Source: Sulfolobus acidocaldarius DSM 639
GTDB lineage: Archaea; Thermoproteota; Thermoprotei_A; Sulfolobales; Sulfolobaceae
Direction: 5' to 3'
Length of the DNA: 24,000 nt
Assembly (NCBI RefSeq): GCF_000012285.1
Contig: NC_007181.1
Coordinates: forward strand, 977,706-1,001,705
The position numbers and the translations under genes were made by a program. Below, piece after piece: positions 749 through 20,381 of this stretch. A model generated the notes under the pieces. The model was not told where the DNA came from. It was given only the letters and a program-made list of their open reading frames with translations, and searched no databases. Each line of letters opens with the position of its first letter. Position 1 is the first letter of the stretch.

Positions 749-834
749 AAATAAAAATAGATATTCAAGTTTATAAATTTTTTGGTGTAATTATTTTAAT
801 CATATAAAAAATATTACAAAACAAAAATAAAGCC

Positions 835-2576: not shown

Positions 2577-2586
2577 TTATTATCAC

Positions 2587-4029: not shown

Positions 4030-4256
4030 CGGGTTAACTTAATCACGTAATTATTTATAAACTTAATATATATATAAAATATTTAAGGTCTAAACTTAAG
4101 GACACCTCCGTTGAACATGTCAACTTAAGTATTATAAGATGTAGTTTACGAAATGATATTAGTATTATTAATTAGCCTTTATTTAATTTACTTAAATTTA
4201 TTTCTAGTTTCCAGTAAAATTTTTAAACCACAAGGAGTAGGTAAAAAAAGATAAGC
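4030..4256. promoter_or_regulatory. Divergent malE / malK control region
   Basis: This is a 227-bp AT-rich spacer between divergent start codons. TTTATAAATA (minus-strand reading of 4051-4060) lies about 27 nt upstream of the malE ATG, implying a leaderless or very short leader. A direct repeat AACTTAAG occurs at 4093-4100 and 4122-4129, and the second copy overlaps the end of the inverted repeat GTTGA-ACATG-TCAAC at 4110-4124. From memory, the malE promoter of S. acidocaldarius is maltose-inducible through the activator MalR. Confidence 0.55.
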
Positions 4257-5333
4257 GTGCAATCATCAGCATTTCTCCAACTATCAGATATCTGGAAATC
4301 ATTTAAAATAAAAAAACAAGTTATTGAGGTTCTCAAGGGAGTTTCTCTTGATGTAAATAAGGGGGAATTTGTGGTAATATTAGGTCCCTCAGGAGAGGGC
4401 AAAACTACACTTCTCAGAATAATATCAGGGCTTGAGGTTCAAGACAAAGGTGAGGTTTACATTGACGGAGAAAGGGTCGATAATATTCCACCTAAAGATA
4501 GAAACGTTGCTATGGTATTCCAAAACTACGCCATATACCCATTCATGTCAGTCTTTGACAATATAGCCTTTCCTCTGAAACTGAAAAAACTACCTAAACA
4601 AGAGATAGCAAAAAAGGTTAGAGAGGTAGCCGAATTATTGCAGATAGAAAAGCTCCTCGATAGAAAACCTTACCAGTTATCGGGTGGACAAAAGCAAAGG
4701 GTAGCAATTGCCCGTGCCCTAGTCAAAGGTGCACAGTTATTATTGATGGATGAACCTTTAGCTAATCTCGATGCACAAATAAGAATGATAGCAAGAGAAG
4801 AACTCAAAGAACTTCAGAGAAAGTTAGGATTCACCGTAGTTTACGTTACACACGATCAGACTGAAGCCCTTGCTCTAGCCGACAGAGTAGCATTACTTAG
4901 GAAGGGTGTACTTCAGGCATACGATAAACCAATGAAATTGTTTAAGAGACCTAACAATATATGGGTAGCGTCGTTCTTAGGTAATCCACCTATGAATCTA
5001 CTTAAAGTAAAGGTTGATGAAGGTGCAGTGTTATTAGATGAGTATAAGATTGAAATTCCCTCTGAAATATCGGAGAAACTAAAGGGTAGAAGCGAAGTTA
5101 TCATGGGTATAAGACCAGAAGATATAGATATAGGAGGGAAAATTAAAGGGAGCGTGGAATTAACTGAACCTCTAGGTCTTTTCTCAGTGATACATGTAAA
5201 AATACGTGAGGATGAAATAAGAGTTGTAACAAATTCATCAAGCTCTTACGTTAAGGGTGACACTATACAATTAGCTATTTCAGGGAACAAAGCTCTATTC
5301 TTCGATGAAAGTACAGGTGAGTTAATAACATAA
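4257..5333 (+). CDS. malK: ABC transporter ATP-binding protein (MalK-type, sugar import)
   Basis: This is a 358-aa ORF with a GTG start at 4257. It has Walker A GPSGEGKTT, the ABC signature LSGGQKQR, Walker B LLLMDEPL, the H-loop VTHD, and a C-terminal TOBE/MalK-like regulatory domain. Confidence 0.93.
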   Translation: MQSSAFLQLSDIWKSFKIKKQVIEVLKGVSLDVNKGEFVVILGPSGEGKTTLLRIISGLEVQDKGEVYIDGERVDNIPPKDRNVAMVFQNYAIYPFMSVFDNIAFPLKLKKLPKQEIAKKVREVAELLQIEKLLDRKPYQLSGGQKQRVAIARALVKGAQLLLMDEPLANLDAQIRMIAREELKELQRKLGFTVVYVTHDQTEALALADRVALLRKGVLQAYDKPMKLFKRPNNIWVASFLGNPPMNLLKVKVDEGAVLLDEYKIEIPSEISEKLKGRSEVIMGIRPEDIDIGGKIKGSVELTEPLGLFSVIHVKIREDEIRVVTNSSSSYVKGDTIQLAISGNKALFFDESTGELIT

Positions 5334-5660
5334 AGAATCTTGCGATGGTTAACCATGGAAGGTATTAAACTAAAAATTCTTAGTAAAAAAATAACCTTCA
5401 ACCTTCCATAAAATTCTTGTGTACTTATTTAAAGCAAATTATTATTGCTAAACGGTGAATATTACATTAAATGTGAATAGAACTTAGATCGTCTTAACAT
5501 CTATTAATTTCTTAGCCCAATCAAATTATTCTTATTTATCTAACCACCTCGTAATTCATGGTCATGAATCGGGCGAAACTATACCTAACGTACAATATAA
5601 GACAACATTTAAGAAGAGAAATCGAAAATCTTAAAAAAGGCTAACTTATTTACTAAACCT

Positions 5661-6143
5661 CTAGTCAGATCCTGCTCCACAACCACAGTACCCAAACTCG
5701 TCAATCTCCAGACCACATACAGGACATGAGTTTAAATCACTTGCTTCTATCCTCATGTTCGATAGATTATCCAAGTCCACCAACGCTTTCACTAAATCCC
5801 TTATTGAAACAATACCGTGGACCTTATCACCCTCAACTACCGGTAAGTGTCTAAATCCGTTATCCACCATTGTTTTTAAGGCAGTATAAATATCGGTGCC
5901 TATTTTTACTCCTTTTACCTCTCTGCTCATATAATCTCCTACTGTTGCATCAAAATTACCATCTGCAAATGCTTTAACTACATCTCTTTCTGTTATTATT
6001 CCAACTACTTCCTCATTCTCGTTTACCACTACTAATGCTCCTATATTGTGGTTTCTCATCTCTCTAGTTGCCCTCAAAAGACTGTCATTTTCTCTTACCA
6101 CAAGGACGGGCTTACTTATATATGTTTTTAATTCTGATAGCAT
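5661..6143 (-). CDS. CBS-pair domain protein with C-terminal Cys-rich (CxxC...CxC) zinc-ribbon-like tail
   Basis: The ORF track gives 5661..6194. I prefer the internal ATG at 6143 (MLSELKTYISKPVLVV) because a TATA-like TTTATATTTTTAAAT lies about 30 nt upstream of it, inside the longer ORF. There are two CBS motifs (IGALVVVNENEEVVGIITERDV and FRHLPVVEGDKVHGIVSIRDL). The tail is SCPVCGLEIDEFGYCGCG. Confidence 0.85.
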   Translation of the reverse strand: MLSELKTYISKPVLVVRENDSLLRATREMRNHNIGALVVVNENEEVVGIITERDVVKAFADGNFDATVGDYMSREVKGVKIGTDIYTALKTMVDNGFRHLPVVEGDKVHGIVSIRDLVKALVDLDNLSNMRIEASDLNSCPVCGLEIDEFGYCGCGAGSD

Positions 6144-6375
6144 AAGTATATACTTGCTTAAATCATTTAAAAATATAAATAAGTAATCTCTCAATAAAGA
6201 TATATTAAACTACATTTTAACTTTTTAAAAATATGTTGAAACATAATAAAATAACCATAATTATAATTTTACATTCCCCTTAAATAGTTCCTCATGTAAC
6301 ACCCAGTTCACATATTAACTTCTTATATATTGTGCGTATTAAATTAAAAAATTTTAAAATTAATATGAGTAAATA

Positions 6376-6819
6376 TTATTTAACATTAAACGCAATCTCT
6401 AATAACTGCTTAGAATTCCTATAACGCCAATAATCTTGAATTATCTGACCTACTTCTCCAGTAGTGTTTGTGTGAGATTTATTACATGCATTTATGTTCC
6501 AATCATCTATAACGACAATGTTTAATTGTGAAACCTCAGGAGGTACAGGGAAGAGATCGTATATCTGGTCACCATATTTCCTCTCTGCCTGAACCCTATC
6601 AAGAACTTCAGTCCTTATCAATGCGTTTTCCTGTACTTTCTTATTAGCTAAGTTAAATATTTCAGCGATCTCCTCATCGGAAGGCTTTCTCTCAAATTTA
6701 ACAGTTAGCCGACCGTGATTGTCTTGAGTGTAAACACTAGCTGTCCACTTTGCTCCTAAAACCTTGACTACAGCTCCCTTGAGGACATGAAGGGCAGTAT
6801 GAGTCCTTACCTCTATCAC
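6376..6819 (-). CDS. alaX: AlaX-S type alanyl-tRNA editing protein (Ser/Gly-tRNA-Ala deacylase, free-standing second additional domain)
   Basis: This is a 147-aa ORF with a GTG start. It carries the zinc-binding motifs HTALH (HxxxH) and CNKSH (CxxxH), which are diagnostic of the threonyl/alanyl-tRNA synthetase editing (SAD) fold. Its size matches AlaX-S. Confidence 0.85.
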
Positions 6820-6890
6820 AGAATCTATTACTAAATTTAATGATAATAAGTTTTCATGAGTGCTACTATGGACAACAAAACCTTTCAGAT

Positions 6891-7874
6891 CTAACTTAGC
6901 TTAAGGCTAATCTTTTTCTTCTCAGCCTTCCAGTCAACCGTTATAGGTCCTAAACCACGTTTACTTCTTAAATAGTTATAAGCTGACAATGCAGCCTTAA
7001 CACCCTCAGCAGCTGCTATAACTGCCTGCTTGTAAGGAGTCTGTGTCACATCTCCAGCCGCAAAAACTCCTTCCCTACTTGTCCTGCCAAATTCATCTAC
7101 GATCACCTCTCCTTTATCATTTAATTTTAGAAATCCTCTTAGAAAATCAGTCTTCAAAACATAACCCATTTCAATTATAACTCCTTCTACCTTCAGCCTC
7201 AATGTCTCTCCCCCTTTATTGATAACCACTTCTTCAACTTTTCCGTTACCGTTTATCTGAAGAACTTTAGACGATGTGTAGATCTTGATGTTTGAGGTAG
7301 ACATAATTTTCTTTATCAATTCCTCGTCTCCTGATAATTGTCCTGAAGAGGTAACGTAATATGCCGGATTGGCATGTTTAGAAAGTATCTCAATAGCCTC
7401 TAATCCTGGCTCTCCTTCACCGACTACCATAGCAGGTTTTCCCTTGAAAAAAGCTGCATCGCAAATAGCACAGTAGGAGACTCCCTTACCTTTGAACTCT
7501 TGTTCTCCTGGGACGTTTAACTCCCTCGGAGTTTTACCAAATGCTAAGACTATGGTCTTAGACTGATAAACATTATGAATCCCATTAACTATGAAAATTT
7601 CACCTTCTTGACTTATCTCTTTAACTTCCTCCCCTAAAACAAACTCTGCGTTAAATCGCTTTGCTTGAGTGTATATCTTCTGAGATAAACCCCGACCACC
7701 TATACTTTCGATTCCGGGATAATTTTCAATAAGGTCTGTCAGCGTGAGTTGACCTCCTAGATCTTTGGACAACACTAAGGTGGATAGTTTCTGTCTAGCT
7801 GAGTATAAAGCTGCACTTAAACCAGCTATACCACCGCCAATTATTATTGTATCATACACTTTGTTGGTGTCCAT
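6891..7874 (-). CDS. trxB: Thioredoxin reductase-like FAD/NAD(P)-dependent pyridine nucleotide-disulfide oxidoreductase
   Basis: This is a 327-aa ORF. It has the FAD-binding motif [12 protein letters not shown], the redox-active CAIC (CxxC) motif, a second dinucleotide fold [13 protein letters not shown], and the C-terminal FAD motif [13 protein letters not shown]-like tract lies about 26 nt upstream of the ATG. Confidence 0.9.
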
Positions 7875-8020
7875 ATATTTCTTTTTAACTAAATATAATA
7901 AAAAGTTAACTTATACTAAAGCGACGTCGCACAAAATTTTGCCGGTAATTTCCTGATTTTCCAGGTCATTAGAGAAAATTAAACATGTCTTTTTATTACC
8001 TTAAATACATAATATACACT
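7875..8020. promoter_or_regulatory. Divergent trxB / msrA promoter region
   Basis: This is a 146-bp AT-rich spacer. A TATA-like TTTTTATTATATTT (minus-strand reading of 7897-7910) serves trxB, and TTTTATTACC (7991-8000) lies about 26 nt upstream of the ATG at 8021 for msrA. Confidence 0.5.
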
Positions 8021-8551
8021 ATGGAAGTTGCAACTTTAGGCGGAGGTTGCTTCTGGTGCACAGAAGCAGTGTTTAAGAGAGTTAAAGGTGTAGTAAGTGT
8101 TAAACCGGGTTATTCCGGTGGAAAAGTTCCAAATCCAACTTATGAAGAAGTATGCACAGACGAGACAGGACATGCTGAGGTAGTCCAGATAACCTTCGAT
8201 CCCTCAGTCATCACATATAGGGAATTGCTCGAGATATTTTTTGAAATTCATGATCCAACTACACCCAATAGACAAGGTAATGATGTAGGCTCTCAATACA
8301 GATCAATAATACTCTATCATAGTGAGGAACAGAAGAAGATCGCCGAGGAGATGATTAAGCTTTACGAGAGGAAGTTAGGTAAAAAGGTCGTTACCGAGTT
8401 AGTACCTTTTGAAGCATTTTATGAGGCTGAGGATTATCATCATGACTTTTACGACAAGCACAAGAATTATCCCTATTGCAAATTAGTTATTGACCCTAAA
8501 GTAAAGAAATTTATGAAAAACTTCCCAGATAAGGCTTCAATAAGGATCTAA
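8021..8551 (+). CDS. msrA: Peptide methionine-(S)-sulfoxide reductase MsrA
   Basis: The active-site motif GGGCFWC lies at the extreme N-terminus ([18 protein letters not shown]), followed by GYSGG and the HDPT..NRQG.D.G.QYRS signature. The track ORF starts at 7985, but that ATG lies upstream of the TATA-like element. Starting at 8021 gives a canonical 176-aa MsrA. Confidence 0.92.
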
Positions 8552-8696
8552 TGCACTGTACTGTTAATAGAATAGTGGTTGATTTATAAATGACTTTGTA
8601 AATAGATTATAAACTCAAGTGAATAAAAATTTTTAATCTTTTGATTTATGCTCCTTTCTTATACTATATTTATTAATTTATCGACACTGTATCATT

Positions 8697-8761
8697 AAAA
8701 TATTTTGAATGTGCACTTTTATACATATAAGAGACCATGTTATTGGCATTCAAAAATATTT
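8697..8761. repeat. Imperfect inverted repeat (14-15 bp arms, about 35-bp spacer) in an ORF-free spacer
   Basis: The left arm AAATATTTTGAATG (8698-8711) is the reverse complement of the right arm CATTCAAAAATATTT (8747-8761) apart from one extra A. Confidence 0.6.
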
Positions 8762-9381
8762 AGTCATTGAAAATTGTGCTAAAACCCTGGTTTAAGGAGG
8801 ATCTAGATGTTGAAAAAACTACAAAATAGTGATTTAGTTAGTTCGAGTCTTGACAGATTTTTTTAATTAATTACAACAAATTATACAATATTATAATAGA
8901 GTAGGTAGGTGAACCTGGATTACTAATAGATTAGGGGGTAAATATTAAAAGCCTCAATTTTCTACCAACTATTTTCATGTAATAATATTTAAATACATGT
9001 AAATTGAAAAACCGTTTACTTAAACTTTTTAAAACACTCCCAGAGGGATAGGGGCTAACAAGAGCAAATAATTTTTATCTGTATGTTCTAAAAATTAAAG
9101 TAAAAATGATTTTTATAGTTGGAAATTTTCTAGTTCCTTGCAACTCTGTAGTATTATATAAGTATTGACGTGAATTTTGCGTTTAGTGAAATCACGTAGA
9201 GCCGAATTTTGTACGCTTTTCAAACGTTAAACCTATATTAGAGTAAAAATAACAGCAGGGAATTCACAGGAGAGTTAAGCTTTCGGCCAAGATTTTAGGT
9301 GGTTATTATTTTTTATATTAATTAACCTTAAAAAGGACTAAAATTTTTACGTATTTAAATACCTGTGTATTATCATTATGA

Positions 9382-10191
9382 ATGTCTTCCATGAATAAGA
9401 GAGTGTTTGACATACTTAGAGAATTAGACTCTCTTGTCGATTTCTCTAGGGCAAAACTACAGTGGGATATATTAATTATACTTGCAACCAAAGGACCATC
9501 ATCGACAACAGAAATCTCACAAACAATAAACACAAGCAGAAAATCCATAATAGACGCAATAAGAAAACTAGTTGACAAAGAACTTGTAACAAAAGTTAAA
9601 GGAGATATATATGGTCTATCTGAAAAAGGGGAGAAGTTACTAGAAAGTTTTGACTCTATAATGTCTATTAATGTAACAGATAAACCTGATTCTTCCATAG
9701 AAAGTAACAGTATCAGTTTGACCAACATAGCAGAATATTTTTACATGCTAGAGATCTTAAAGATGGCACTTTTAAATAAACAGATAACCATAGATAAGGC
9801 TTCTCATGAACTCGGAATTTCTAAGCAGACCCTAAAATATTACATAGAGACCTTTACGGAAAATAAACTCCTGAAAGTAGTAAATCAGGAGAGTGTTTTA
9901 GGGAAGTCAAAAAAGATATATGTTTTAACTGATGAGAGCCGTAAGTTAGTATCTAGACTACCTGAGCTTACACGACTTAAGAGAAACCTACCCCTTAAGA
10001 TCCTGTTAAAACTCACGGGAAGTTATAGATACGAGATCGCCTTAACTAAAGTAATGCTATTCAACGTGATATCAATTCCGGTTCTTATGTATCTCAAGGA
10101 TCAGTTGGGTATATTGGAAGCGATATGGTTATATGTGATAATTCTACTTCCGTTACTTTCGATATTCGCAGAAATATTTAACAGGATATAA
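9382..10191 (+). CDS. arnR1: Membrane-anchored HTH transcription regulator, ArnR paralogue (archaellum regulatory network)
   Basis: This is a 269-aa ORF. It has an N-terminal winged-HTH region (ILATKGPSSTTEISQTINTSRKSIIDAIRKLVDKELV), a second HTH-like segment (ISKQTLKYYIETF), and two C-terminal TM helices (VMLFNVISIPVLMYL and IWLYVIILLPLLSIFAEIF). It is a paralogue of the ORF at 17238..18047. A TATA-like TATTTAAATA (9351-9360) lies about 27 nt upstream of the ATG. Position next to flaJ fits arnR1 (Saci_1171) as I remember it. Confidence 0.88.
   Translation: MSSMNKRVFDILRELDSLVDFSRAKLQWDILIILATKGPSSTTEISQTINTSRKSIIDAIRKLVDKELVTKVKGDIYGLSEKGEKLLESFDSIMSINVTDKPDSSIESNSISLTNIAEYFYMLEILKMALLNKQITIDKASHELGISKQTLKYYIETFTENKLLKVVNQESVLGKSKKIYVLTDESRKLVSRLPELTRLKRNLPLKILLKLTGSYRYEIALTKVMLFNVISIPVLMYLKDQLGILEAIWLYVIILLPLLSIFAEIFNRI
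9420..9600 (+). repeat. 181-bp block 100 percent identical to 17267..17447 (copy 1, inside arnR1)
   Basis: I compared the two copies base by base and found no mismatch over 181 bp. Flanking sequence on both sides is highly diverged. Both copies have the same codon phase (offset 38 nt from the arnR1 start and 29 nt from the arnR start, each 2 mod 3). Confidence 0.95.
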
Positions 10192-10235
10192 TTTAAGGTC
10201 CTTTCAAAATAAGTACCTTTGGTCATATATTTTCA

Positions 10236-11672
10236 TCAAGTTGTATTCTGAATGCCACTAATTATACCTCCAGATGAAAAAGCTTGAAACAGTTGCGCGG
10301 TGAGCGTTAATATGACATAATACGATATCGCGCTCATAATCATAAGTAGACCTATAAAGTATAGGCTTGCATAAATAGACTTACCATAAGCCAAAGATAT
10401 CGCCATCCCATTCGCAAAACTCATGACGAAAAGCATTATTAAAAATATTTTAGAAACAAATCCTATATCAATAGGGTTGAACGCTATTACCGAAGCCAAT
10501 TCACCAATCGAAAATAAATTATTCAGCATACTAGTTATAGAGATTAAGGCAGCAGAAACGCCTGCTGAGGACACTTGAAGTGCGTATATAGAAGCCTCGA
10601 AAGCCCTACCGTTCTGCTCCTTTCTGGCTCTTATATTCAGTACTACATCACCTATTTTACTTAATATCTCTCCGGTGATCAACATATTACCTCCATTACT
10701 AATTGTCTCGTACAAGATCTCACTGAGCATAGTTACGAGTACGCTTTTACTTTCTCTTCCCATAAGGGAAAAAATTTTGCTTTTATTAACTCCTAAGTTT
10801 AGCCTGTTTAATGCCCTTCTTATCATAGGTTTTGCAGAACCTAAATCACCCCTTAAAACAGCCATCAGTGACTCCTTTAGATTGTTTACAACTGAATAAT
10901 TTCTAGTAAAATAACGCGTAAATAACAAAAAATATCTCTCTAAATTATTTATTTTATTTTCAAATATCCTGTATCTCATTCCCACTCCTAAATAGAGAAC
11001 TCCTGTTATTATCATTGTTATAAATGATGTATAGGTTAGATTTAATGCAATTCCCAGTAAAATTAAAGCAGTTAATAAAAGTCTGTCTCTACTACTATAT
11101 CGCATATAGCTTTCAGGTTTATATATATAGTACATGATTACAGTTAAATTAACTAAGATGACCGTGGAGAGAAAGAAAATCTGTAATAGTATACTAGAAC
11201 CACCAGAGTAAAGAACTGATAGGACAGTCATGTCTGCTACGAGAAATGCTAAAGAACTATTCAAGGTTGCATAGACTGTGAGGAAATTGTTCATAGATTC
11301 AATAACTCTAGCTGAGTGAGAACTGTACTCAGCCAATGAGAAATCTATTTCCCTCTCTAGAAACTGAACCATGTCGTCTCCAAAAGTAACGGCCTGTGAT
11401 AATCTTACCAGAAATTCACTTAGAAATTTTACTTTAGAATTTCTTATAGCATAGTTTATTCCTTGTGAAAATTTATATCTAAATCCTGATACTAAATTCT
11501 TTATTCTCCTAAAGACCTTCAAATACGGATGAAAAGAGTCCTTATTTGATACTTTTAACAAAACCGTTTCAGGGGGCAACCCTGCAGAAAAGAGAGCCAT
11601 CATGAAAGCTAACATAAAGATATATTTAGAGTCCATTTCCTCTTTTTTATTCCTGTCAAATATTACTGACAT
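10236..11672 (-). CDS. flaJ: Archaellum polytopic membrane platform protein FlaJ/ArlJ (TadC/PilC-like)
   Basis: This is a 478-aa multi-TM ORF and the last gene of the operon. Its start overlaps the flaI stop by 17 nt. The architecture, with two cytoplasmic domains alternating with TM bundles, is typical of type IV filament platform proteins. Confidence 0.9.
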
Positions 11673-13197
11673 ATTTTATCGCCTCCTCCAAACCCATCTG
11701 TCTCGCTCTTAAAATATAATCCCAAACATCATAATAGTTGAATATCTTCTTCTCTACAAGAAGATTTAAAAACCTGGATCGCATCTGCAACTCATCATAT
11801 AACAAGCCGATATTCCTTCTATCTATGCCCCTCTTGACTGCTATCTTGTTCTCGATTAGATATGAAGATCCTTTTCCAGCAAATAACATCTTATCCTGAA
11901 CTGAATCATACGTAAATGCAGGGATATAAACTACGTCATTTGTCACAGGATCTATGTCTATTATTTCGTCGACCTCGACAACCCTCCTGATTAGATTCCC
12001 TTTCTTATCGTATAAGGCAGTTTGAAATAACGCAATATTCAAGTTATTAATATAACTCTTTGGAACCTCTATAGGATAACCAGTAAGTCGCTGTATTAAC
12101 GTCGTTATATTCGCTGCATGAAACGTTGCCATTACTGAGTGACCAGTTTGCATAGCCTGAAAGGCGACATTTCCCTCCTTGTCTCTAATTTCTCCCACAA
12201 GTATGTAGTTTGGTCTTTGTCTTAATGCAGCTTTAAGTAAGTCAAATAATTTTATTGTACCTTCACCACCAGTTTCTCTAGTGACCTCTGCAACCCAATT
12301 TGAATGCGGAACCGTCAATTCTGGAGTGTCCTCAATAGTAACTATCTTTAGATTTGGGGGAATGAAAGCAGTTATGGCATTTAATGTAGTTGTCTTTCCA
12401 GATGCGGTTTCTCCACATACAAAAAGATTCATTCCCTCATCCAGCATAGTCCATATATATGCCGCCATCATAGAGGATAATGTTCCAAACATGATGAGTT
12501 GAGTTATACTGGTTGGAACTCTACTAAATTTCCTGACAGTTAGATTTGATCCTCTTCTACTTATATCAACACCGTACACAAAATTTACCCTAGAACCGTC
12601 AGGCAGACTCGCATCAACTACTGGTCTGTTATGAGAAACGGGCCTATATGACTTTTCACTGAGGGAAACTATTAGATTATCTAACTCTTCATAATTCTCA
12701 AATTTAATTGAAGTTCTCATTGGACCGAAAACCTTATGAACGATATATACATGTCCTAGCCCTGGTATTGATATATCTTCTATGTAAGGATCTCTAATGA
12801 GAGGTTCTAATGAACCTGTATATAACTTATCCCTGATGAAATGGTAAATAACATATTCCTTTGGAACAGAAAGCCTCATTCTTAGAAGGATTTTATCTAA
12901 TATTGAGCGTATTAATTTTTCTTTCTCCTTAGTATCTTCTGGTGGTTCCTTATCGCCGATAGATAAGGCAAACTTCTCCTCTATTTCCTCCATTTCATCA
13001 TGAGTAGGTCTAGGAGGTTCTATAACATTATATTGATTATAGCCATCCTCACTTTTTATACTCTGAATATGAATATAAACAAAATCGTCTACTCTATAGA
13101 TTGCATTAAATATTTTGCTCCCCTTCAAGATATTTGGGTTTTCTATTATTGTAGGTCTTTCCTGAAGTTTTGTTAAATAGTCTTCCACGAAGCTCAT
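11656..13197 (-). CDS. flaI: Archaellum assembly/rotation ATPase FlaI/ArlI (secretion superfamily ATPase)
   Basis: This is a 513-aa ORF with Walker [10 protein letters not shown], Walker B-like ILVGEIRD, and Asp/His boxes typical of VirB11/PilB-type hexameric ATPases. It starts 3 nt after the flaH stop. Confidence 0.95.
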
Positions 13198-13200
13198 GAC

Positions 13201-13887
13201 TTATGCCCTCGATAAGGATAATGGTACAACCTTAATGCCCAGCGCAGGATCCACATCAAAAGAAATTGTGTCTGAACCAGATATTCCTCCTGTAGTTTTT
13301 ACTCTTTCTAGGATCTTTACTCTTCTTCCACCTATAGTCGCAGCCGAGAGCTTAAGATACACATCAACTATACTAGTTATTTTACTCTTCATTTCCTCGT
13401 CAAAAGTATCTGGATGAATAGTGAATAGAATCATTTTACCCGTATTAACTAAGACCCTGATGTCCTTCATAAATTGTAATAACTGCTTCTCCTTTGAGAA
13501 AGCAGCTAGTATTGACAAACTATCGATTACGATGAAGTCTATATTTTTACTTCTTATAAAGTTTACAATAACATCTAAAATTTTCTCAGCTAAACTAGAG
13601 TTCCAATTAAATTTCTTCGTATTCAATGGAGCAATTCTTAGTTTTCCCCTTATAAAGTATGGTATTAAATCGATCTTTATTTCCTTCATCTTAATCAAGT
13701 AATCTTTAGTAGTCTGCTCCGTAGTAATCACATATCCCTTCTTATCTGACAATAGAAAACCTAATACGAATTGAGCAGATAACACACTCTTACCCGTGCC
13801 ATGATCTCCTTCTATCATTATCGATGCTGGATATGGTATTCCTCCTAGTCTTCTATCTAGATCGTCATTACCGGTACTTATAATCAT
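13201..13887 (-). CDS. flaH: Archaellum RecA/KaiC-like ATP-binding protein FlaH/ArlH
   Basis: The ORF has Walker A GDHGTGKS and a RecA-like fold (IVIDSLS). The track ORF starts at 13902. I prefer the ATG at 13887 (MIISTGNDDLD) because it forms an ATGA overlap with the flaF stop and is preceded by GGAGGGG. This gives 228 aa. The start could still be 13902. Confidence 0.9.
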   Translation of the reverse strand: MIISTGNDDLDRRLGGIPYPASIMIEGDHGTGKSVLSAQFVLGFLLSDKKGYVITTEQTTKDYLIKMKEIKIDLIPYFIRGKLRIAPLNTKKFNWNSSLAEKILDVIVNFIRSKNIDFIVIDSLSILAAFSKEKQLLQFMKDIRVLVNTGKMILFTIHPDTFDEEMKSKITSIVDVYLKLSAATIGGRRVKILERVKTTGGISGSDTISFDVDPALGIKVVPLSLSRA

Positions 13888-14378
13888 AGGCTTCCCCTCC
13901 ATATTACCGATGGACCATAGTTTGTTACAATGACTACTGTAGCTTGAGTATTTGGATACGGAGGATATGGCAGAATGATAGTTAAAGTAGCCTGAGAGCC
14001 TGGAGCTAACAAAGGAGTATTAATTGTCCAATAATAAGGGCTAGGGTTAGAGTTCTTTGTGTAGTTATATAACGAGAGATTGAAAGTTGAGATATTGCTA
14101 ATGTTAGCATAGTATTGTACTATAACGGAAAAACCTTGAAAATCATACAGATTAGTAGATCCATTATTTTCTAACACAACATTCAAAGTACTTCCCGTTA
14201 ATGATACGGAGCTTACAGTTATCTTCGTTTCTAACTGTTCTAATTCCAATTCATGATTTAATTCTTGTGCTTGATTCAAAATTTGCTGGCTCTTAAAATA
14301 TGCACTCAACAATACAATTCCAAATGAAACACCAATAAAAGTTATTAGAATAAACGCCAAAGTTTGTGACACTCCCAT
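13884..14378 (-). CDS. flaF: Archaellum stator-associated protein FlaF/ArlF (N-terminal TM helix plus beta-sandwich)
   Basis: This is a 164-aa ORF with an archaellin-like hydrophobic N-terminus (MGVSQTLAFILITFIGVSFGIVLL). Its position between flaG and flaH is as in Sulfolobales fla operons. Confidence 0.88.
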   Translation of the reverse strand: MGVSQTLAFILITFIGVSFGIVLLSAYFKSQQILNQAQELNHELELEQLETKITVSSVSLTGSTLNVVLENNGSTNLYDFQGFSVIVQYYANISNISTFNLSLYNYTKNSNPSPYYWTINTPLLAPGSQATLTIILPYPPYPNTQATVVIVTNYGPSVIWRGSL

Positions 14379-14379
14379 T

Positions 14380-14844
14380 TTAGCTTACCTTAAACATGTA
14401 ACTAACAGTATATCCATTGGGTGTAACAATCTGAATAGTATAGTATTGGTTTGATGATAACGGAGAAGACAAATAGATAATGATTTTTACTACTGACCCT
14501 GGCTGTAGTGAATTAGATGTAACTGTCCAATAGGGGGAAGAACCTGAATTATAGCCTACAGGTTGCAATTGACCATTTGGACCGAAATACACTACACTAT
14601 TTTGAAGGTAAGAGATCGTTGTTTCCCCCACATTATGTAAATATGCAACTACAGTGTTTGAGCTCGTGTTAGTAGCATAATCTATCTGTAGTTGTGTCAA
14701 CATTTTTTGAGATTGTTGAATAGAATATGACGACATTGTCGTAGAGATAGATGAGGCGACTGAAAAAACGGTTCCCGCTAAAACGCCAATAAGAGTTACA
14801 GAAACTATTATCATAATGGTCTCACTTATAACCTCACTAACCAT
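14380..14844 (-). CDS. flaG: Archaellum protein FlaG/ArlG (N-terminal TM helix plus beta-sandwich)
   Basis: This is a 154-aa ORF with a hydrophobic N-terminus (ETIMIIVSVTLIGVLAGTVF). It overlaps the flaX stop by 8 nt and ends 1 nt before the flaF start. Confidence 0.88.
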   Translation of the reverse strand: MVSEVISETIMIIVSVTLIGVLAGTVFSVASSISTTMSSYSIQQSQKMLTQLQIDYATNTSSNTVVAYLHNVGETTISYLQNSVVYFGPNGQLQPVGYNSGSSPYWTVTSNSLQPGSVVKIIIYLSSPLSSNQYYTIQIVTPNGYTVSYMFKVS

Positions 14845-15589
14845 TCACACCACCACCCTCCAAAATCATTATATATTTCTTAATTTCAGGAGTTAGTGAT
14901 GAGTAACTCTCAGCTATATTTGCAGCAATAGAAGCTAACTCTTTCGCTGTAATTTTTCTATTCTTTATGAAAGATAAAATTCTTAGAATAGTAAACATAT
15001 CATCTGAAGAGACATATCCTAATTCATACAGCTGTTTAATTTTTTCTTCATCATATTCCATTATCTCCAACAGGACACATGATTTTATAAACCATGTTAA
15101 GTTTACGTTATTAGGGTTATTAGATCCTACTAACTGACTTACGGTACTAATCTCTCTACTAACATGTTCTTCTTCCTGCTGAATTATTGTATTAAACGGT
15201 GAGGAGGAATCTGATTCACTTGCCTTCACAGATAAGGCTAACTCTTCAACTGCTGAGTTAAGATTCTCTATCAATTTTTTCATCTCATTAAAACTGTTTG
15301 TTATATTTGTCAACAATTCATTCTCTTTTTTATCCATCTTCCCTAACACATCCTTTAGAGCCTTTTCGATACTGTCACTTGAGTATTTTGAGGTTTCATC
15401 ATTAGCAGGTTTCTGCTGAGTCGGAAATCGCTGTTCTTGAGAAATGTTTTGAGGGCTTTGCTGGGTTTGCACTCTCTTAGTCTTTGGTAAAATTACACGG
15501 AATAGAATTTCTAGGAATGCAGCTATAGGTATACCAACTCCTATCAATATTATGAATAATGATGATTGTAATAGATCTTGGATAGCCAT
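14837..15589 (-). CDS. flaX: Crenarchaeal archaellum scaffold/ring protein FlaX/ArlX
   Basis: This is a 250-aa ORF with an N-terminal TM helix (SLFIILIGVGIPIAAFLEILF), a polar Gln/Ser-rich linker, and a coiled-coil-like middle (ELLTNITNSFNEMKKLIENLNSAVEELALSV). It is the second gene of the operon, as in S. acidocaldarius. Confidence 0.88.
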   Translation of the reverse strand: MAIQDLLQSSLFIILIGVGIPIAAFLEILFRVILPKTKRVQTQQSPQNISQEQRFPTQQKPANDETSKYSSDSIEKALKDVLGKMDKKENELLTNITNSFNEMKKLIENLNSAVEELALSVKASESDSSSPFNTIIQQEEEHVSREISTVSQLVGSNNPNNVNLTWFIKSCVLLEIMEYDEEKIKQLYELGYVSSDDMFTILRILSFIKNRKITAKELASIAANIAESYSSLTPEIKKYIMILEGGGVNG

Positions 15590-15664
15590 TACTCATGCAC
15601 CGCCTTAGTGGGAAATATTAAATAAAAAACATTATATCTTAAATATCTTCTCATTTTAAACCAT
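15590..15664 (-). promoter_or_regulatory. flaB-flaX intergenic region: candidate flaB terminator (T6) plus candidate internal flaX promoter
   Basis: On the minus strand, GTTTTTTATT (the A6 run at 15624-15629 on plus) lies about 36-41 nt after the flaB stop. TTTAATATTTCC (15611-15622) lies about 28 nt upstream of the flaX ATG. This is the only real gap (75 bp) in an otherwise overlapping operon. Confidence 0.45.
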
Positions 15665-16579
15665 TTATCCTATAACTGTCACTTTTCCATCAGGCTGATA
15701 GATATACTGGGATATTGTTAATGGTGAACCAATATTTGGAGTTATCTGAATTGTCACAGTCTCGTATTGGAAAACGTTAGTTGCCTCGCCAGGACCAAAT
15801 AATATCATCACACCTATTACGGATCCAGCAGGAGCTATATCACTTCCGGCTAATGGGAAGCCGGATACTGGATACGTGAAGGCAAATGTTTTATTAACAT
15901 ATGCATAGTATTCTACCTCCGTACCGTTAACACTTATATTGAAGGTAAATACGTTATCGTTCTTTAGCCATGGCTTTGATGCTACTATAGACGTATTAGA
16001 AATGATATAGAGAGGAGAAGATGTTAATTGACCACCCTTAACCTCCTGACCTAAAGTATAATTCAGAGCTAATAATGCATAATTGGGATCGGAATAGTAT
16101 ACATAAGTTTGTCCTGCACTATTGGAAGAAAAGGCTAATGTTAAATTTATAATACTGGTGCCTAATTTAACTTGTACTTTGTTATTCACCTGGCTAGGTA
16201 GTACAGATAATAAACTGAATTGGTAGATGTTAGATAGTGACACTCCTCTACTAGCAGCTGTAAACGATATTGCTGTAGTTGAAGGAGATAAGTCTACACT
16301 AGATACACCAGAACTAGGAGATACAGTGAAATACATCCAGTAACTCTTTGTATTGGTGGGATAATTCACTGCATATAGCACATTTCCTGATAAAGATAAC
16401 GCAGTAGACGCAGTTTCTTCTCCTTTATTTATAGTAGTCTTAGCTTTTTGAGTTACAAATAACCCCATATTTACTGCAACATATGCCAAAACTGCTGCTG
16501 TTATTATGAATGCTATTAATATTATTGCTGTATCCAATCCTGCTAAACCTCTTGTTTTCCTTCTTTTCATGTATATCAT
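15665..16579 (-). CDS. flaB: Archaellin FlaB/ArlB (archaellum filament subunit) with class III signal peptide
   Basis: This is a 304-aa ORF, or 301 aa if it starts at 16570 (MKRRK). The N-terminus KRRKTRG/LAGLDTAIILIAFIITAAVLAYV is a type IV pilin-like prepilin-peptidase (PibD/FlaK) site followed by the conserved archaellin hydrophobic helix. The C-terminal end (ITPNIGSPLTISQYIYQPDGKVTVIG) matches Sulfolobus archaellins as I remember them. Confidence 0.95.
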   Translation of the reverse strand: MIYMKRRKTRGLAGLDTAIILIAFIITAAVLAYVAVNMGLFVTQKAKTTINKGEETASTALSLSGNVLYAVNYPTNTKSYWMYFTVSPSSGVSSVDLSPSTTAISFTAASRGVSLSNIYQFSLLSVLPSQVNNKVQVKLGTSIINLTLAFSSNSAGQTYVYYSDPNYALLALNYTLGQEVKGGQLTSSPLYIISNTSIVASKPWLKNDNVFTFNISVNGTEVEYYAYVNKTFAFTYPVSGFPLAGSDIAPAGSVIGVMILFGPGEATNVFQYETVTIQITPNIGSPLTISQYIYQPDGKVTVIG

Positions 16580-16721
16580 GTTTCTATCACTTTTTCAAAA
16601 TGAGATTTCTAAGTTGGTCTTTAAAAACCTCCCCTCGATCTTCGACCAAAAATCACAATTTTTCGACTGCTGATCGACGTTAATTTAGTCTTTTTTTTAA
16701 AGAACTTTTATTTTATTATAC
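16580..16721. promoter_or_regulatory. flaB promoter / upstream activating region, shared with the divergent small ORF
   Basis: On the minus strand, a TATA-like GGTTTTTAAAGA (16618-16629) and GTGAT (16586-16590) precede the flaB ATG. Upstream of the TATA element, TCGAC occurs at 16642-16646, 16663-16667 and 16674-16678 (spacing 21 and 11 bp), and TCGATC occurs at 16635-16640. The palindrome AAAAAT-CACA-ATTTTT lies at 16648-16663. Confidence 0.6.
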
Positions 16722-17099
16722 ATGATACTGATGAGAAGGCAATATATTCTTATATCATTATTAATGATACCTTTTCTTATAGTGCTATCAATACTTTATG
16801 ATACACCTTTATTCATGGCTCCAGTTCCGCTATTCTTATTCTACATATCTAGAATTATCGGAATTAACACAATAAATGATAGTAAATCGCTTTATAGATA
16901 CATAAAGAGATATTATGGGAAAGAAATTGCAGATAAAATTCAACAAAACTTTAAAGTTGTAAATAGCTTTGACTTATTGGATAATAATTCTCTTATAATA
17001 TTTGATAACATATTAATTCTAAAAATTAACAATAAAATAGGAGTTTTTGAAATAGAGGAGGGTATAGACTATCTAATAAGGCTAATGAATTATGTGTAA
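16722..17099 (+). CDS. Small hypothetical membrane protein (2 predicted TM helices plus a soluble tail of about 80 aa)
   Basis: This is a 125-aa ORF divergent from flaB and upstream of arnR. Hydrophobic segments are ILISLLMIPFLIVLSILY and LFMAPVPLFLFYISRIIGI. I recognise no motif. The gene is very AT-rich. The call rests on ORF length, TM pattern, and a T-rich TATA-like tract about 25 nt upstream. Confidence 0.6.
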   Translation: MILMRRQYILISLLMIPFLIVLSILYDTPLFMAPVPLFLFYISRIIGINTINDSKSLYRYIKRYYGKEIADKIQQNFKVVNSFDLLDNNSLIIFDNILILKINNKIGVFEIEEGIDYLIRLMNYV

Positions 17100-17237
17100 T
17101 ATTCTCTTTTAATAGATCTATTTATGGTCTAAAGCTACATAATTAACAGTGCATATGTAAATTATTTACTAGAGTGTTTTACTTTTGTATAAAAACAGTA
17201 ATATTTAAATTTTCAGATGGCATAGATTCTCTAAGAG

Positions 17238-18047
17238 ATGACCAAGAGTCTATTCGATGTGTTAAAAGAATTAGACTCTCTTGTCGATTTCTCTAGGGCA
17301 AAACTACAGTGGGATATATTAATTATACTTGCAACCAAAGGACCATCATCGACAACAGAAATCTCACAAACAATAAACACAAGCAGAAAATCCATAATAG
17401 ACGCAATAAGAAAACTAGTTGACAAAGAACTTGTAACAAAAGTTAAACATGATATCTATGGGTTATCCGACAAGGGAAAGGAACTTTGGAACAAGATCGA
17501 TTCGGTCTTAAACATAGAAGTGATAAACGGAAATAATCATAAAGGACAAAGCAAAGATGAAGATATATTAGCTTTAGAAAACCTATCCCAATATTTTTAC
17601 TTAATTAACTTATCCAAAATGATTACAATCAATCACGATGGATTGAGTCTAGATAAAGCAGCTAGAGAATTAGGAGTCTCAAGACAAACACTCAAATACT
17701 ACCTTGAACTCTTTGAGGAGAAGAAATTATTCAGAGTTATAGGTAAGAGGACTCATTTTAAGAAAAATATCTATAAGTGTGTATTAATGAATGAAGGTAA
17801 AAGGCTATTATTCAGATTACCCGAGTTTACGAAAATGAAAAATAATCTTCCGCTTAAGCTACTTCTAAGACTAACAAATAGTTATACTCTCGAAATGGCA
17901 AACGTCAAAGTTATGGGATTTATTCTAATCTCTTTACCATTACTCATGTACTTTAGAGACCAATTAGGTCTAATTGAACTGCCCTGGTTATATGCAGTAA
18001 TATTCTTAGCACTTTTAAGTGTATTTGCGCAAATCCTCAGTAGATAA
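17238..18047 (+). CDS. arnR: Membrane-anchored HTH transcription activator of the archaellum operon, ArnR
   Basis: This is a 269-aa ORF with the same architecture as arnR1: a wHTH, a second HTH (VSRQTLKYYLELF), and two C-terminal TM helices (VMGFILISLPLLMYF and WLYAVIFLALLSVFAQIL). A TATA-like ATATTTAAATTTT (17201-17213) lies about 30 nt upstream of the ATG. Position between flaB and the kinase fits arnR (Saci_1180) as I remember it. Confidence 0.9.
   Translation: MTKSLFDVLKELDSLVDFSRAKLQWDILIILATKGPSSTTEISQTINTSRKSIIDAIRKLVDKELVTKVKHDIYGLSDKGKELWNKIDSVLNIEVINGNNHKGQSKDEDILALENLSQYFYLINLSKMITINHDGLSLDKAARELGVSRQTLKYYLELFEEKKLFRVIGKRTHFKKNIYKCVLMNEGKRLLFRLPEFTKMKNNLPLKLLLRLTNSYTLEMANVKVMGFILISLPLLMYFRDQLGLIELPWLYAVIFLALLSVFAQILSR
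17267..17447 (+). repeat. 181-bp block 100 percent identical to 9420..9600 (copy 2, inside arnR)
   Basis: See copy 1. The two copies are in direct orientation with an offset of 7847 bp. The identical antisense pseudo-ORFs in the track (MSTSFLIASIMDFLLVFIVCEISVVDDGPLVASIINISHCSFALEKSTRESNS) are a by-product of this block. Confidence 0.95.
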
Positions 18048-18316
18048 ACCCTTTTTACCATATTATACCTACTAGAATTTCATTCAATATTTTCTTGTCT
18101 ATTTTAAGATTAGAAATAGTTAATCATGAAATAAATTTCTCTCATATCATAGCTAATCACATTAAAAGAGATAGAATAGTTTAAAAACAGGTGTTTCAAT
18201 ACTAATTATATACAATAAGAAGATATACCCACATAAAGTTGAGATGATACGAGGTGTTAGTTAGTGGAAATTAGGATAATTCACAAGCGAATTTTTCAGT
18301 ATTAGTAGTAAAAGCT

Positions 18317-20188
18317 ATGTTAATGTCGTTTATATTATTGATATCGACATCTATGATACTTATTTCAGTTTTCAGTTATGTGCTGATAGCTTTGATAGTT
18401 TTAGGAATAGTTTTGTCACTAATATCATTGCTATCTCCTAGAGTATCTTACGTATCTTCAGTTTACCTGATAGGTCTAACAGTATATTTAAATCCAGGAT
18501 TTTCTCTAACTCAGTCCCTGATAAATACTGTTCCTATCCTAGGAGAAATAAATATGTTAAGTGGGCTGTTGAAGACTCCTGTAACTTCAATAATATCTAG
18601 CCTTTTCTCCCTAGCATTATTAAATTTAGGCATAAAGGGTTATGAGATATATTTGAGTAAGCACGCTGATATCGTGAAATTAGATTCAATAATTTTCTCC
18701 CAACACGGTCTTCCGAAGCAGGCTAACTGGAATATTGTTGTTAATTCTGAAGTAAAACTCCTCAAGTCAAATGAGAAGCTTATATTAAGCAATACTCCAG
18801 AAGCGAAATATGAACTTTGCCCAACATTGGTAGACCATAAATATTACGTGCCCAATAAGGTGACGGGTTTAGCCTTTGAGGGAGAGGTTATAAGGATTAA
18901 TTACTCTCCAGTTGACGGTGTACCGTATGAAAAGTTCAGGAACTGTTTTACAGTATTTGAGGTCGAAGGACTACCTCCAGATACGAGTTTTGTAATTGAA
19001 ATTAATGGTGCGTCATTGAAGCTCAAGGATAGAAAGTTCGCTAAACTGTCGCTGGAGCCTTTGTACTGGAAAGTAAATGAAATCAGGATATCTAGAGAGG
19101 ATGAAGAAGAAATTTATGAACCTGACATAAAAGAGGGTTTAACTTTTAGAGGTGGGACAGTTAAAATAAACTTCAGGAGGAAAGTGATTAGATATAAAAC
19201 AGCTAAAATACCATCTATAGAAAATTGGGATCCTGGAATTTGGGTGGGTCAAGAGGTTTATGGTTACAGGGTAATTGAAGTAATAGGATTAGGTGGAAAT
19301 GGATATGTTATGAAAGTGGAAAAGAACGGTTTATTATACGCTATGAAAGTTCTATCAGTAAATAAGTTCACCAATTCCCTAGAACACTTTGACAATCTGT
19401 TAAAGGAATCTGAAAATTTGGAAAAGTTATCAAAAGATCCAAGGTTAGTTAGTATATATGGCTCATTTGTAGACAAAAATAACATTCAGTCTGCGTTAGC
19501 TGGGGATTATACCAGCTATTATAAGTACCCGCCGGCAATTATAATGGAGTTTATGGAGGGCGGCACATTATTCGATCTAATTAGTAGAGTTGATCTTGTA
19601 CAGTCTAAATATTGGCAGTACATAGTCAAACTCGTCATAAAAGAAATAGCCAAAGCCCTGACGTTTTTACATAAAAGGGGATATGTTCACCTAGATGTAA
19701 AGCCACAAAATATATTTCTGAAAGAGAAAATCAACGGCGAGCCAGAAGTAGTTTATAAAATTCTGTCTTCTACCCCGGGAATAATTAAGTTGGGGGACTT
19801 AGGTAGTGCAGTTAGAGTAGGAGAGAAGATAACACAAGCAACACCAGCCTATTCACCACCAGAGCAAATAGAGGCAGTAATAACAGGAAAGGGAGCACAA
19901 CCCTCCATGGATAATTATGCATTAGGTGTTACACTATATAAGTTACTTACTATGAAGAACCTAGATTATGTTAACTATTTGGATAAAGCTTTCGATGAAT
20001 ACATCAAAGGGGATCCCAGTATTGCGATGAAATACATAAATATGGCTAAGATGAGTATGGTTAACTTTAAACCTAAACTACCTCATAATACTCTGCCCGA
20101 GTTAGCTAACGTAGTACAGGGAACATTAGTTGTAGATCCAAAGAGGAGACTGACCAGCTACGATATAGTTAAGATATTAGAAGGGTAA
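18317..20188 (+). CDS. arnS: Membrane-bound eukaryotic-type Ser/Thr protein kinase (ArnS)
   Basis: This is a 623-aa ORF. About 4 N-terminal TM segments (aa 1-115) are followed by a domain of about 190 aa that I cannot assign. The ePK domain runs from about aa 310 (nt 19244). It has the Gly-loop GLGGNGYV, the catalytic Lys in YAMKV, the catalytic loop HLDVKPQNIF (a non-RD variant), DLG in place of DFG (KLGDLGSA), and PPE in place of APE (YSPPE). Position next to arnR fits Saci_1181 (ArnS) as I remember it. Confidence 0.9.
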   Translation: MLMSFILLISTSMILISVFSYVLIALIVLGIVLSLISLLSPRVSYVSSVYLIGLTVYLNPGFSLTQSLINTVPILGEINMLSGLLKTPVTSIISSLFSLALLNLGIKGYEIYLSKHADIVKLDSIIFSQHGLPKQANWNIVVNSEVKLLKSNEKLILSNTPEAKYELCPTLVDHKYYVPNKVTGLAFEGEVIRINYSPVDGVPYEKFRNCFTVFEVEGLPPDTSFVIEINGASLKLKDRKFAKLSLEPLYWKVNEIRISREDEEEIYEPDIKEGLTFRGGTVKINFRRKVIRYKTAKIPSIENWDPGIWVGQEVYGYRVIEVIGLGGNGYVMKVEKNGLLYAMKVLSVNKFTNSLEHFDNLLKESENLEKLSKDPRLVSIYGSFVDKNNIQSALAGDYTSYYKYPPAIIMEFMEGGTLFDLISRVDLVQSKYWQYIVKLVIKEIAKALTFLHKRGYVHLDVKPQNIFLKEKINGEPEVVYKILSSTPGIIKLGDLGSAVRVGEKITQATPAYSPPEQIEAVITGKGAQPSMDNYALGVTLYKLLTMKNLDYVNYLDKAFDEYIKGDPSIAMKYINMAKMSMVNFKPKLPHNTLPELANVVQGTLVVDPKRRLTSYDIVKILEG

Positions 20189-20381
20189 AAGAGATTTCAT
20201 TTAACATTTTTATAATTATGATTTTTATTAAATAAAAACTAATACCTTGATTTCACCCCTTTAATTGAGTAAGTATATTTGTTTCTAAAACTTTTAGGAT
20301 TTGGCATTAAACTTCAATTTTAGTTTATCCTCTATTATAACACTTTAATTATGATTGTTAACAAGGGAAAAAGTTTTGTTT

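Follow-up and report, generated by a model that had tools for sequence, protein, structure and literature searches.

The archaellum locus of Sulfolobus acidocaldarius DSM 639

The archaellum operon of Sulfolobus acidocaldarius DSM 639 is bracketed by two paralogous regulator genes, arnR1 and arnR, which share an exact direct repeat of 181 bp. All three lie within the stretch of 24,000 nucleotides analysed here (the window, positions 977706-1001705 of the single-contig, 2,225,959-bp genome of the DSM 639 type). The operon is complete, its seven arl genes stand in the canonical order arlBXGFHIJ, and the same order is found in six other genera. At one end of the operon, arnR adjoins arlB and is divergently oriented, whereas at the other end arnR1 is convergent with arlJ, an arrangement encountered in none of nine outgroup genomes. 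A small open reading frame (ORF) of 125 codons, ORF125, separates arlB from arnR, and in one outgroup genome (G031) a weak homolog of it (27.5% identity over 131 amino acyl residues) immediately precedes arnR. The coordinates of all features are collected in Table 1. An earlier, sequence-only reading of this DNA had assigned to the interval between the repeat copies the 3' part of arnR1, the fla (arl) genes from flaJ to flaB, a small ORF, and the 5' part of arnR, and the Pfam matches bear out this gene content.

ArnR1 and ArnR consist of 266 and 269 amino acyl residues, respectively, and possess an N-terminal winged helix with Pfam matches over residues ~20-95 in both. Two C-terminal hydrophobic segments, starting near residues 215-221 and 237-251, occur in ArnR, in ArnR1, and in the hybrid protein described below, the transmembrane call for these proteins being a hydropathy check only (Kyte-Doolittle above 1.6). 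ArnR and ArnR1 were reportedly described as archaellum activators by Lassak et al. in 2013. They are known paralogous activators in S. acidocaldarius with helix-turn-helix (HTH) domains that are "almost identical" at the protein level, and in starved cells ArnR turns on the arlB promoter (Bischof et al. 2019, PMC6396743; review PMC10117864). Under starvation, arnR is upregulated 160-fold and arnR1 stays low, the arnR1 promoter being low and constitutive (review PMC10117864).

Table 1. Features of the archaellum locus of S. acidocaldarius DSM 639; positions are those of the window.
Feature	Position	Strand	Remarks
AT-rich, ORF-free spacer and arnR1 promoter region	8552..9390	+	26.9% GC; kept upstream of the SUSAZ hybrid gene
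arnR1	9391..10191	+	membrane-bound winged-HTH one-component regulator, convergent with arlJ; alternative ATG at 9382; HTH_45, HTH_24, TrmB, MarR
Repeat copy A	9420..9600	+	exact 181-nt tract in arnR1, encodes winged-helix residues; 100% identical to copy B
Unit absent from SUSAZ, 7847 bp	9601..17447 (equivalently 9420-17266)	.	arnR1 3' part, arlJ-arlB, ORF125, arnR promoter and 5' end, one tract copy
arlJ (flaJ)	10236..11672	-	membrane platform protein; Pfam T2SSF
arlI (flaI)	11656..13197	-	ATPase; Pfam T2SSE
arlH (flaH)	13201..13902	-	KaiC-like; PF06745
arlF	13884..14378	-	FlaF_Ig-like, 1.6e-53
arlG	14380..14844	-	Arch_flagellin
arlX	14837..15589	-	ArlX, 4.2e-98
arlB	15665..16579	-	archaellin; Arch_flagellin
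ORF125	16722..17099	+	125 aa, between arlB and arnR; ORF call; no Pfam match
arnR	17238..18047	+	membrane-bound winged-HTH regulator that activates the arlB promoter; oriented divergently from arlB; HTH_45, HTH_24, TrmB, MarR
Repeat copy B	17267..17447	+	exact 181-nt tract in arnR; codon phase as copy A
Segment with exceptionally strong divergence between DSM 639 and SUSAZ	17448..18600	+	arnR 3' part, spacer, arnS 5' end; begins at the right edge of the tract

An exact direct repeat brackets the operon

Alignment and a base-by-base check reveal directly that positions 9420-9600 and 17267-17447 are identical at 181 of 181 nucleotides and that a mismatch lies immediately outside each edge. The two copies are in direct orientation, their starts are separated by 7847 bp, and each begins 29 nucleotides past the ATG of its gene (9391 and 17238), so that both tracts are in the same codon phase. 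Coordinates, orientation, spacing, and shared phase thus agree with those given in the sequence-only reading, and the product sizes that it had predicted for a polymerase chain reaction (PCR) across the locus are correct as well, the computed values being 8301 bp for the wild type and 454 bp for the deletion allele.

A repeat search of the window returned a 239-nucleotide direct repeat family with a spacing of 7847 bp, within which the exact core amounts to 181 nucleotides. Throughout the genome this tract exists in these two copies only. Exact repeat pairs of at least 100 bp number 26 in the 2.23-Mb genome and are mostly tandem arrays; among those that are dispersed and in direct orientation, the 181-nucleotide pair is the longest. 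Further 31-mers repeated within the genome are located at window positions 19814-19845 and 22658-23950; they include mosaic identity tracts with a period of 672 bp in a surface-repeat gene at the right end of the window.

SUSAZ carries a hybrid regulator gene and lacks archaellum genes

If the two tracts recombined with each other, a single in-frame gene with the N-terminal part of arnR1 and the C-terminal part of arnR should remain, and the archaellum genes should be gone. This had been predicted in the sequence-only reading, together with a survey of genomes as a check. Among the 47 genomes of the family that were searched, one other genome of the genus, that of S. acidocaldarius SUSAZ (G039), possesses a single arnR-like gene. 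This gene is precisely such a hybrid, joined within the tract, and the genome is devoid of archaellum genes. The SUSAZ genome is a single contig of 2,061,920 bp rated 100% complete, in which neither ArlX nor the Ig-like domain of ArlF was found and in which no nucleotide match to window positions 9601-17266 exists anywhere. Searches of genome and metagenome contigs with ArnR1 and with a three-sequence alignment gave no matches and added no further Sulfolobus lineages.

The architecture of the SUSAZ locus (L023) is directly evident from the alignments. Positions 5381-15034 of this locus are colinear with window positions 1-9629 (90.6% identity) and positions 14796-17872 with window positions 17238-20280 (82%; both by BLAST), and the two alignment blocks overlap on the repeat only. 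Otherwise, both genomes are colinear over ~50 kb with 89-93% identity. The spacer of ~830 bp upstream of arnR1 is colinear and 82% identical in SUSAZ and has no Rfam match. Contigs of the Logan collection reach 149-774 nucleotides into this spacer in DSM 639, and it may be at least partly transcribed. Just downstream of arnS, between the equivalents of window positions 20280 and 20367, SUSAZ contains ~4.4 kb that are absent from DSM 639 (G039:C1:962871-967255).

In a three-way alignment, the SUSAZ gene consists of an arnR1-type upstream spacer and first 29 nucleotides, one tract, and an arnR-type sequence from the base equivalent to 9601 onward, and arnS follows the arnR-type 3' part. The encoded protein (P0003) begins with MNKRVFDILR, as does ArnR1, whereas ArnR begins with MTKSLFDVLK. 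The ORF is in frame, encodes 269 residues that align throughout to ArnR-type proteins, is intact, and is under purifying selection (omega 0.10-0.13). Informative sites are arnR1-like rather than arnR-like in a ratio of 9:2 before the tract and of 56:172, evenly spread, after it (Fisher P = 1.8e-4), and this distribution places one clean switch from arnR1 to arnR inside the tract, between the equivalents of 9419 and 9601, a position that is read directly from the sites.

Gene conversion as the origin of the tract

Outside the tract, arnR1 and arnR are 47% identical at the amino acid and 55% at the nucleotide level, and their synonymous sites are nearly random. The identity between the two genes covers synonymous sites and has abrupt edges, and the remainder of the genes is saturated. 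Where both proteins have the same residue, the same codon is employed in 32 of 97 cases outside the tract but in 60 of 60 inside (P ~1e-29 under the outside rate). Since all codons are identical inside and only 33% outside, purifying selection on the protein is insufficient to account for the tract, which argues for gene conversion, the signature of which is directly visible in these counts. The SUSAZ tract differs from both DSM 639 copies at 15 of 181 positions, and 10 of these 15 differences are synonymous, so that synonymous change is tolerated there. Both DSM 639 tracts are identical to each other and yet differ from that of SUSAZ at the same 15 sites, and since the 3' parts of the two genes had separated before the DSM 639-SUSAZ split, concerted evolution is indicated.

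One might ask whether strong purifying selection on the DNA-binding domain alone, in the absence of gene conversion, could have generated this identity, considering that no other part of the ArnR proteins is as well conserved between genera as the HTH and that its near identity has been noted in the literature (PMC6396743; PMC10117864). Such an explanation is hardly conceivable when every one of 60 codons is identical in the tract as compared to one third elsewhere, and when SUSAZ has accumulated synonymous changes in the same segment; we have rejected it on the codon data. Judged from the codon comparison, the 181-nucleotide segment is a gene-conversion tract between old paralogs and not a product of selection alone.

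Variants of ArnR or ArnR1 with insertions or deletions in the tract (P0016, P0021, and P0023) looked like mutations spread by conversion but turned out to be scaffold joins with N. Other variants with adapter-like residues were likewise discarded as evidence.

A second pair of paralogs with an exact tract was noticed in DSM 639, an inverted repeat of 281 bp (G000 924204-924484 and 2049673-2049953; L043). In its SUSAZ counterpart (L047/L048), an exact run of 232 bp is located inside copies that are roughly 80% identical. The presence of such a pair in both genomes suggests that domain-sized conversion tracts recur in both lineages.

A loop-out deletion as the proposed mechanism

We propose that arnR1 and arnR are old paralogs flanking the archaellum operon in direct orientation and that gene conversion would keep their winged-helix segments identical, thereby providing a perfect direct repeat of 181 bp. 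RadA-type homologous recombination between the tracts, dependent on RadA, would loop out a circle of 7847 bp comprising the operon and a reciprocal gene with the 5' part of arnR and the 3' part of arnR1, and this circle, unable to replicate, would be lost. The chromosome would keep a single in-frame gene that is led by the promoter and the initial 10 codons of arnR1, continues with the shared tract, and ends with the sensor and membrane part of ArnR. Such an event appears to have happened at least once in nature, in the sister lineage SUSAZ, and the same deletion would be possible in laboratory strains of the DSM 639 type. The explanation as a whole, i.e., a repeat maintained by conversion, a loop-out deletion, and the SUSAZ allele as its product, is in our judgment probably correct.

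The sequence-only reading is supported in part, namely in its structural prediction, which is realized in SUSAZ. The identity of the repeats, which a deletion does not explain, has its cause in gene conversion between old paralogs. That reading had also called the deletion irreversible. This holds only for a clonal culture; otherwise, the wild-type allele could in principle be re-imported from wild-type cells by homologous recombination, and a divergent block next to the tract, described below, hints at exchange. It has been considered in this context that the tract might be a maintained recombination handle, with the archaellum being lost by loop-out and regained by homologous import from archaellated cells. 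Together with the DNA-exchange system, this would constitute a slow on/off switch of motility at the population level, and the block from 17448 to ~18600, with its synonymous divergence (dS) of 1.5, would be the scar of an import. We consider such a handle, with its switch and import scar, very improbable.

An integrase-type mobile element was considered as well and rejected. The interval contains only arl genes and ORF125, its GC content of 34.1% is ordinary, and since no integrase, tRNA, or Rfam element was matched in it, it does not represent a mobile element.

Evidence weighed against a natural deletion

Several observations weigh against the deletion scenario and have to be considered together. 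The natural example rests on one assembly, and other public assemblies of S. acidocaldarius are visibly wrong at the tract, with scaffold Ns and adapter-derived residues. The tree topology of the regulators would agree just as well if an unsampled Sulfolobus lineage had supplied the 3' part of arnR1 as a xenolog. With a dS of 1.5 from DSM 639 arnR, the arnR-type half of the SUSAZ gene has diverged far more than the neighbouring genes, which means that the history of the locus is more complex than one clean deletion. That ArnA and ArnB are intact would not be expected if the archaellum had been lost long ago; other roles of these proteins or a recent loss would account for it. Finally, the hybrid occurs on no DSM 639-type genome at the National Center for Biotechnology Information (NCBI), and two contigs of the Logan collection that contain it are most likely mis-joins in the assembly of RNA-seq data.

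With regard to the assembly, the SUSAZ arrangement could have originated from a collapse across the 181-bp repeat in which the 7.7-kb contig from the middle was dropped; the repeats would then be only a conversion tract, and a deletion across them would be theoretical and without a known example. In the literature searched, no publication on the SUSAZ assembly was found, and the intact state of ArnA, ArnB, and ArnS in this genome would fit such a collapse as well. Public assemblies indeed break or mis-join inside the tract (L028, GCA_001560715.1; L029, GCA_001560035.1; proteins P0015, P0018, and P0024), one such case sitting in a record of 2,220,582 bp; scaffold joins with N in the tract generate false insertions of 1-3 residues, and some variants start with adapter-like residues. 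However, the finished single contig of SUSAZ resolves a longer exact repeat, the 232 bp of the other paralog pair, and two long CRISPR arrays. Furthermore, a collapse would imply that a contig of 7.7 kb was thrown out in spite of its normal depth, and there is no trace of any arl gene in SUSAZ. An assembly collapse is therefore very unlikely.

The block adjacent to the tract is a further complication. Between DSM 639 and SUSAZ, dS amounts to 0.20 for the TrxB-like gene, 0.50 for msrA, 0.29 for the tract, and 0.55 for arnS. For the 3' part of arnR it reaches 1.51 at an omega of 0.10, an excess over the neighbours with P = 1e-11. In a sliding window, identity is ~70-79% from the right edge of the tract to ~18600 and then returns to 88-95%. 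Judged from these divergence profiles, recombination with a more distant relative has probably replaced the block from 17448 to 18600 in either DSM 639 or SUSAZ, one end of the exchange being at or near the tract.

ArnA, a protein with an FHA domain, and ArnB are repressors of the archaellum, and both are intact and 98% identical in SUSAZ (L041, G039:C1:996473-999679, as compared to L042, G000:C1:1027946-1031152 in DSM 639). The gene arnS is also kept. Either the loss of the archaellum was fairly recent or these proteins have other roles.

Direction of the event

Recombination between two tracts is a symmetrical reaction, and for this reason the junction does not reveal its direction, which must be argued from other evidence. 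Nine genomes that represent six other genera each possess one arnR, divergent from arlB, and contain nothing arnR-like beyond arlJ. The linkage of arnR and arlB throughout the family, together with the ORF125-arnR neighbourhood in one outgroup, indicates that the 5' context of arnR, which is absent from SUSAZ, is ancestral. ArnR and ArlX co-occur across the family, with SUSAZ being the only complete genome that has arnR and lacks ArlX, and more than 20 archaellum-less genomes of the family are devoid of any arnR. A maximum-likelihood tree constructed from the C-terminal 200 columns, the tract excluded, has the topology (ArnR1,(ArnR,SUSAZ)) with supports of 100/99 and 99/98, according to which the ArnR1 and ArnR types separated before the split of DSM 639 and SUSAZ; ArnR1 forms a long branch in this tree. 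When other genera are ranked by similarity, the Arl proteins of DSM 639 give the same order as ArnR, no genus being unusually close, and the GC content of the interval (34.1%) is within the range of the genome.

In the opposite direction, a SUSAZ-like single arnR in an archaellum-less genome would be the older state, and DNA with arl genes and arnR, circular or linear, would have recombined into the HTH region of the resident gene, either by Campbell-type integration or by double-crossover import, giving rise to two chimeric genes. Owing to the symmetry of the reaction, the junction fits such an insertion equally well, and the tree topology would be consistent with an unsampled sister lineage as the donor. 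At the edge of the tract, the divergent block resembles DNA imported in one of the two lineages, and within several genera the archaellum is present in some genomes only. In contrast, the ancestral 5' context of arnR is missing precisely in SUSAZ, and a SUSAZ-like orphan arnR must itself stem from an earlier loss, so that more events are needed; the more than 20 genomes of the family without an archaellum also lack arnR altogether. A simple Campbell integration predicts a normal divergence of the arnR 3' part, other than is observed, and with a distant donor, the identity of the tract at every synonymous site would still call for later conversion. The similarity ranking of the Arl proteins, which is that of ArnR and singles out no unusually close genus, and the unremarkable GC content do not speak for it either. 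We consider insertion unlikely. A foreign origin of the arl segment, for which GC content gives no sign, was discarded.

On the other side, gene trees and family-wide synteny favour a deletion over an ancestral empty site, and it is quite probable that the arrangement with two copies is the older one, from which a crossover in the tract produced the SUSAZ allele.

ArlX is distributed patchily within four genera, being present in 1/7, 3/6, 2/4, and 1/2 genomes, which suggests that the archaellum operon was repeatedly lost or gained in the family and that arnR normally goes along with it. Two genomes (G015 and G027) possess ArlX and have no arnR match at 1e-10.

Hybrid contigs in a DSM 639 background

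An exact hybrid of the DSM 639 type, with the N-terminus of ArnR1 and identical to ArnR from residue 11, is present in the protein collection (P0002). It is carried by two Logan contigs, SRR10574308_470 and ERR13709218_199, which match window positions 8617 (or 9242)-9600 and then 17267-18494 (or 18112) at 100%. These contigs are probably an artefact of de Bruijn assembly of RNA-seq data and no proof of deletions in laboratory strains.

In favour of a deletion in laboratory strains of the DSM 639 type as the source of both contigs, the two flanks are joined without any mismatch at 100% identity. The absence of the reciprocal hybrid of the circle from the protein collection has also been counted in favour of such a deletion. 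However, the contig ends do not coincide with genomic repeats and are thus coverage-limited, as in RNA-seq, and the second codon of arlB is where contigs of the sibling runs ERR13709242 and ERR13709261 begin, a transcript-like start which indicates that the operon was expressed in that study. The unique 5' part of arnR comprises only ~29 nucleotides, fewer than the 31-letter words with which the Logan collection is indexed. De Bruijn assemblers would be expected to clip a stub of ~29 nucleotides as a tip and to drop a weak arnR1 3' branch, and the outcome would be just such a chimera. ArnR1 occurs among the Logan sequences, whereas wild-type ArnR in full length never does, as predicted by a mis-join. 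The starvation response, with arnR raised 160-fold and arnR1 low, points the same way (review PMC10117864). In NCBI assemblies, the wild-type sequences of ArnR and ArnR1 are each found on 39 contigs, and no publication citing the Logan run accessions was found in the literature searched. A deletion in these laboratory strains is thus rather doubtful as the source of the contigs.

Relation to known systems

The genes of this locus and the similarity of their HTH domains are already known, as are gene conversion and non-allelic homologous recombination as mechanisms; what is new is a well-supported instance in which conversion between paralogs and non-allelic homologous recombination come together. 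Studies on ArnR and ArnR1 deal with the same genes (PMC6396743; PMC10117864) but give similarity at the protein level only. In the literature searched, there is no mention of a nucleotide-perfect tract as a product of conversion or as a substrate for deletion, nor of the tract as the longest dispersed direct repeat bracketing the motility operon, and neither the SUSAZ allele as a deletion product nor the loss of the archaellum in SUSAZ was found described.

Hybrid genes of the Lepore type, such as haemoglobin Lepore (delta/beta) and the opsin and CYP11B1/B2 hybrids, arise from non-allelic homologous recombination between tandem paralogs. As proposed for the SUSAZ locus, the crossover removes what lies between the paralogs, and the single gene that remains is in frame, starting with the promoter and 5' end of the upstream copy and finishing with the 3' end of the downstream one. 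In the present case, however, a whole motility operon of seven genes would be lost in a haploid archaeon, by intrachromosomal loop-out or unequal sister exchange, and homology is limited to the 181-bp conversion tract in genes that are otherwise 55% identical. Dispersed paralogs are also subject to concerted evolution by gene conversion, for example tufA and tufB in Salmonella and E. coli, which similarly show sharp-edged identity, including synonymous sites, between genes otherwise free to diverge. In contrast to the tuf genes, only one domain of 60 codons and not the whole gene is homogenized here, and due to the direct orientation of the two copies around the operon, resolution by crossover would be deleterious for motility.

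Engineered pop-out repeats are typically several hundred bp long and are used under counter-selection, whereas the repeat described here is natural, 181 bp in length, and its copies are 7.8 kb apart. The routine excision of markers between direct repeats in the pop-in/pop-out genetics of S. acidocaldarius (PMC12107092) is comparable in that the recombination system of the host excises the DNA between direct repeats, and the organism is therefore capable of such a reaction.

Implications for archaellum regulation and its loss

S. acidocaldarius is the main model for motility of crenarchaea and its regulation. The "almost identical" HTH domains of ArnR and ArnR1 result from gene conversion, and by this process the two activators are forced to keep one DNA-binding specificity. 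For data analysis, the locus calls for caution, as short-read and RNA-seq assemblies break or mis-join at the 181-bp repeat. In cultures, the repeat would offer a testable route by which the whole operon could be lost in one step, with a PCR product of 8.3 kb versus 0.45 kb as a diagnostic. For the SUSAZ lineage, the deletion would explain the loss of the archaellum with a regulator kept intact, and the hybrid represents a natural domain swap that combines the promoter and N-terminus of arnR1 with the sensor and membrane part of ArnR. As purifying selection acts on this hybrid although the genome offers it no archaellum to control, other targets of the regulator are indicated.

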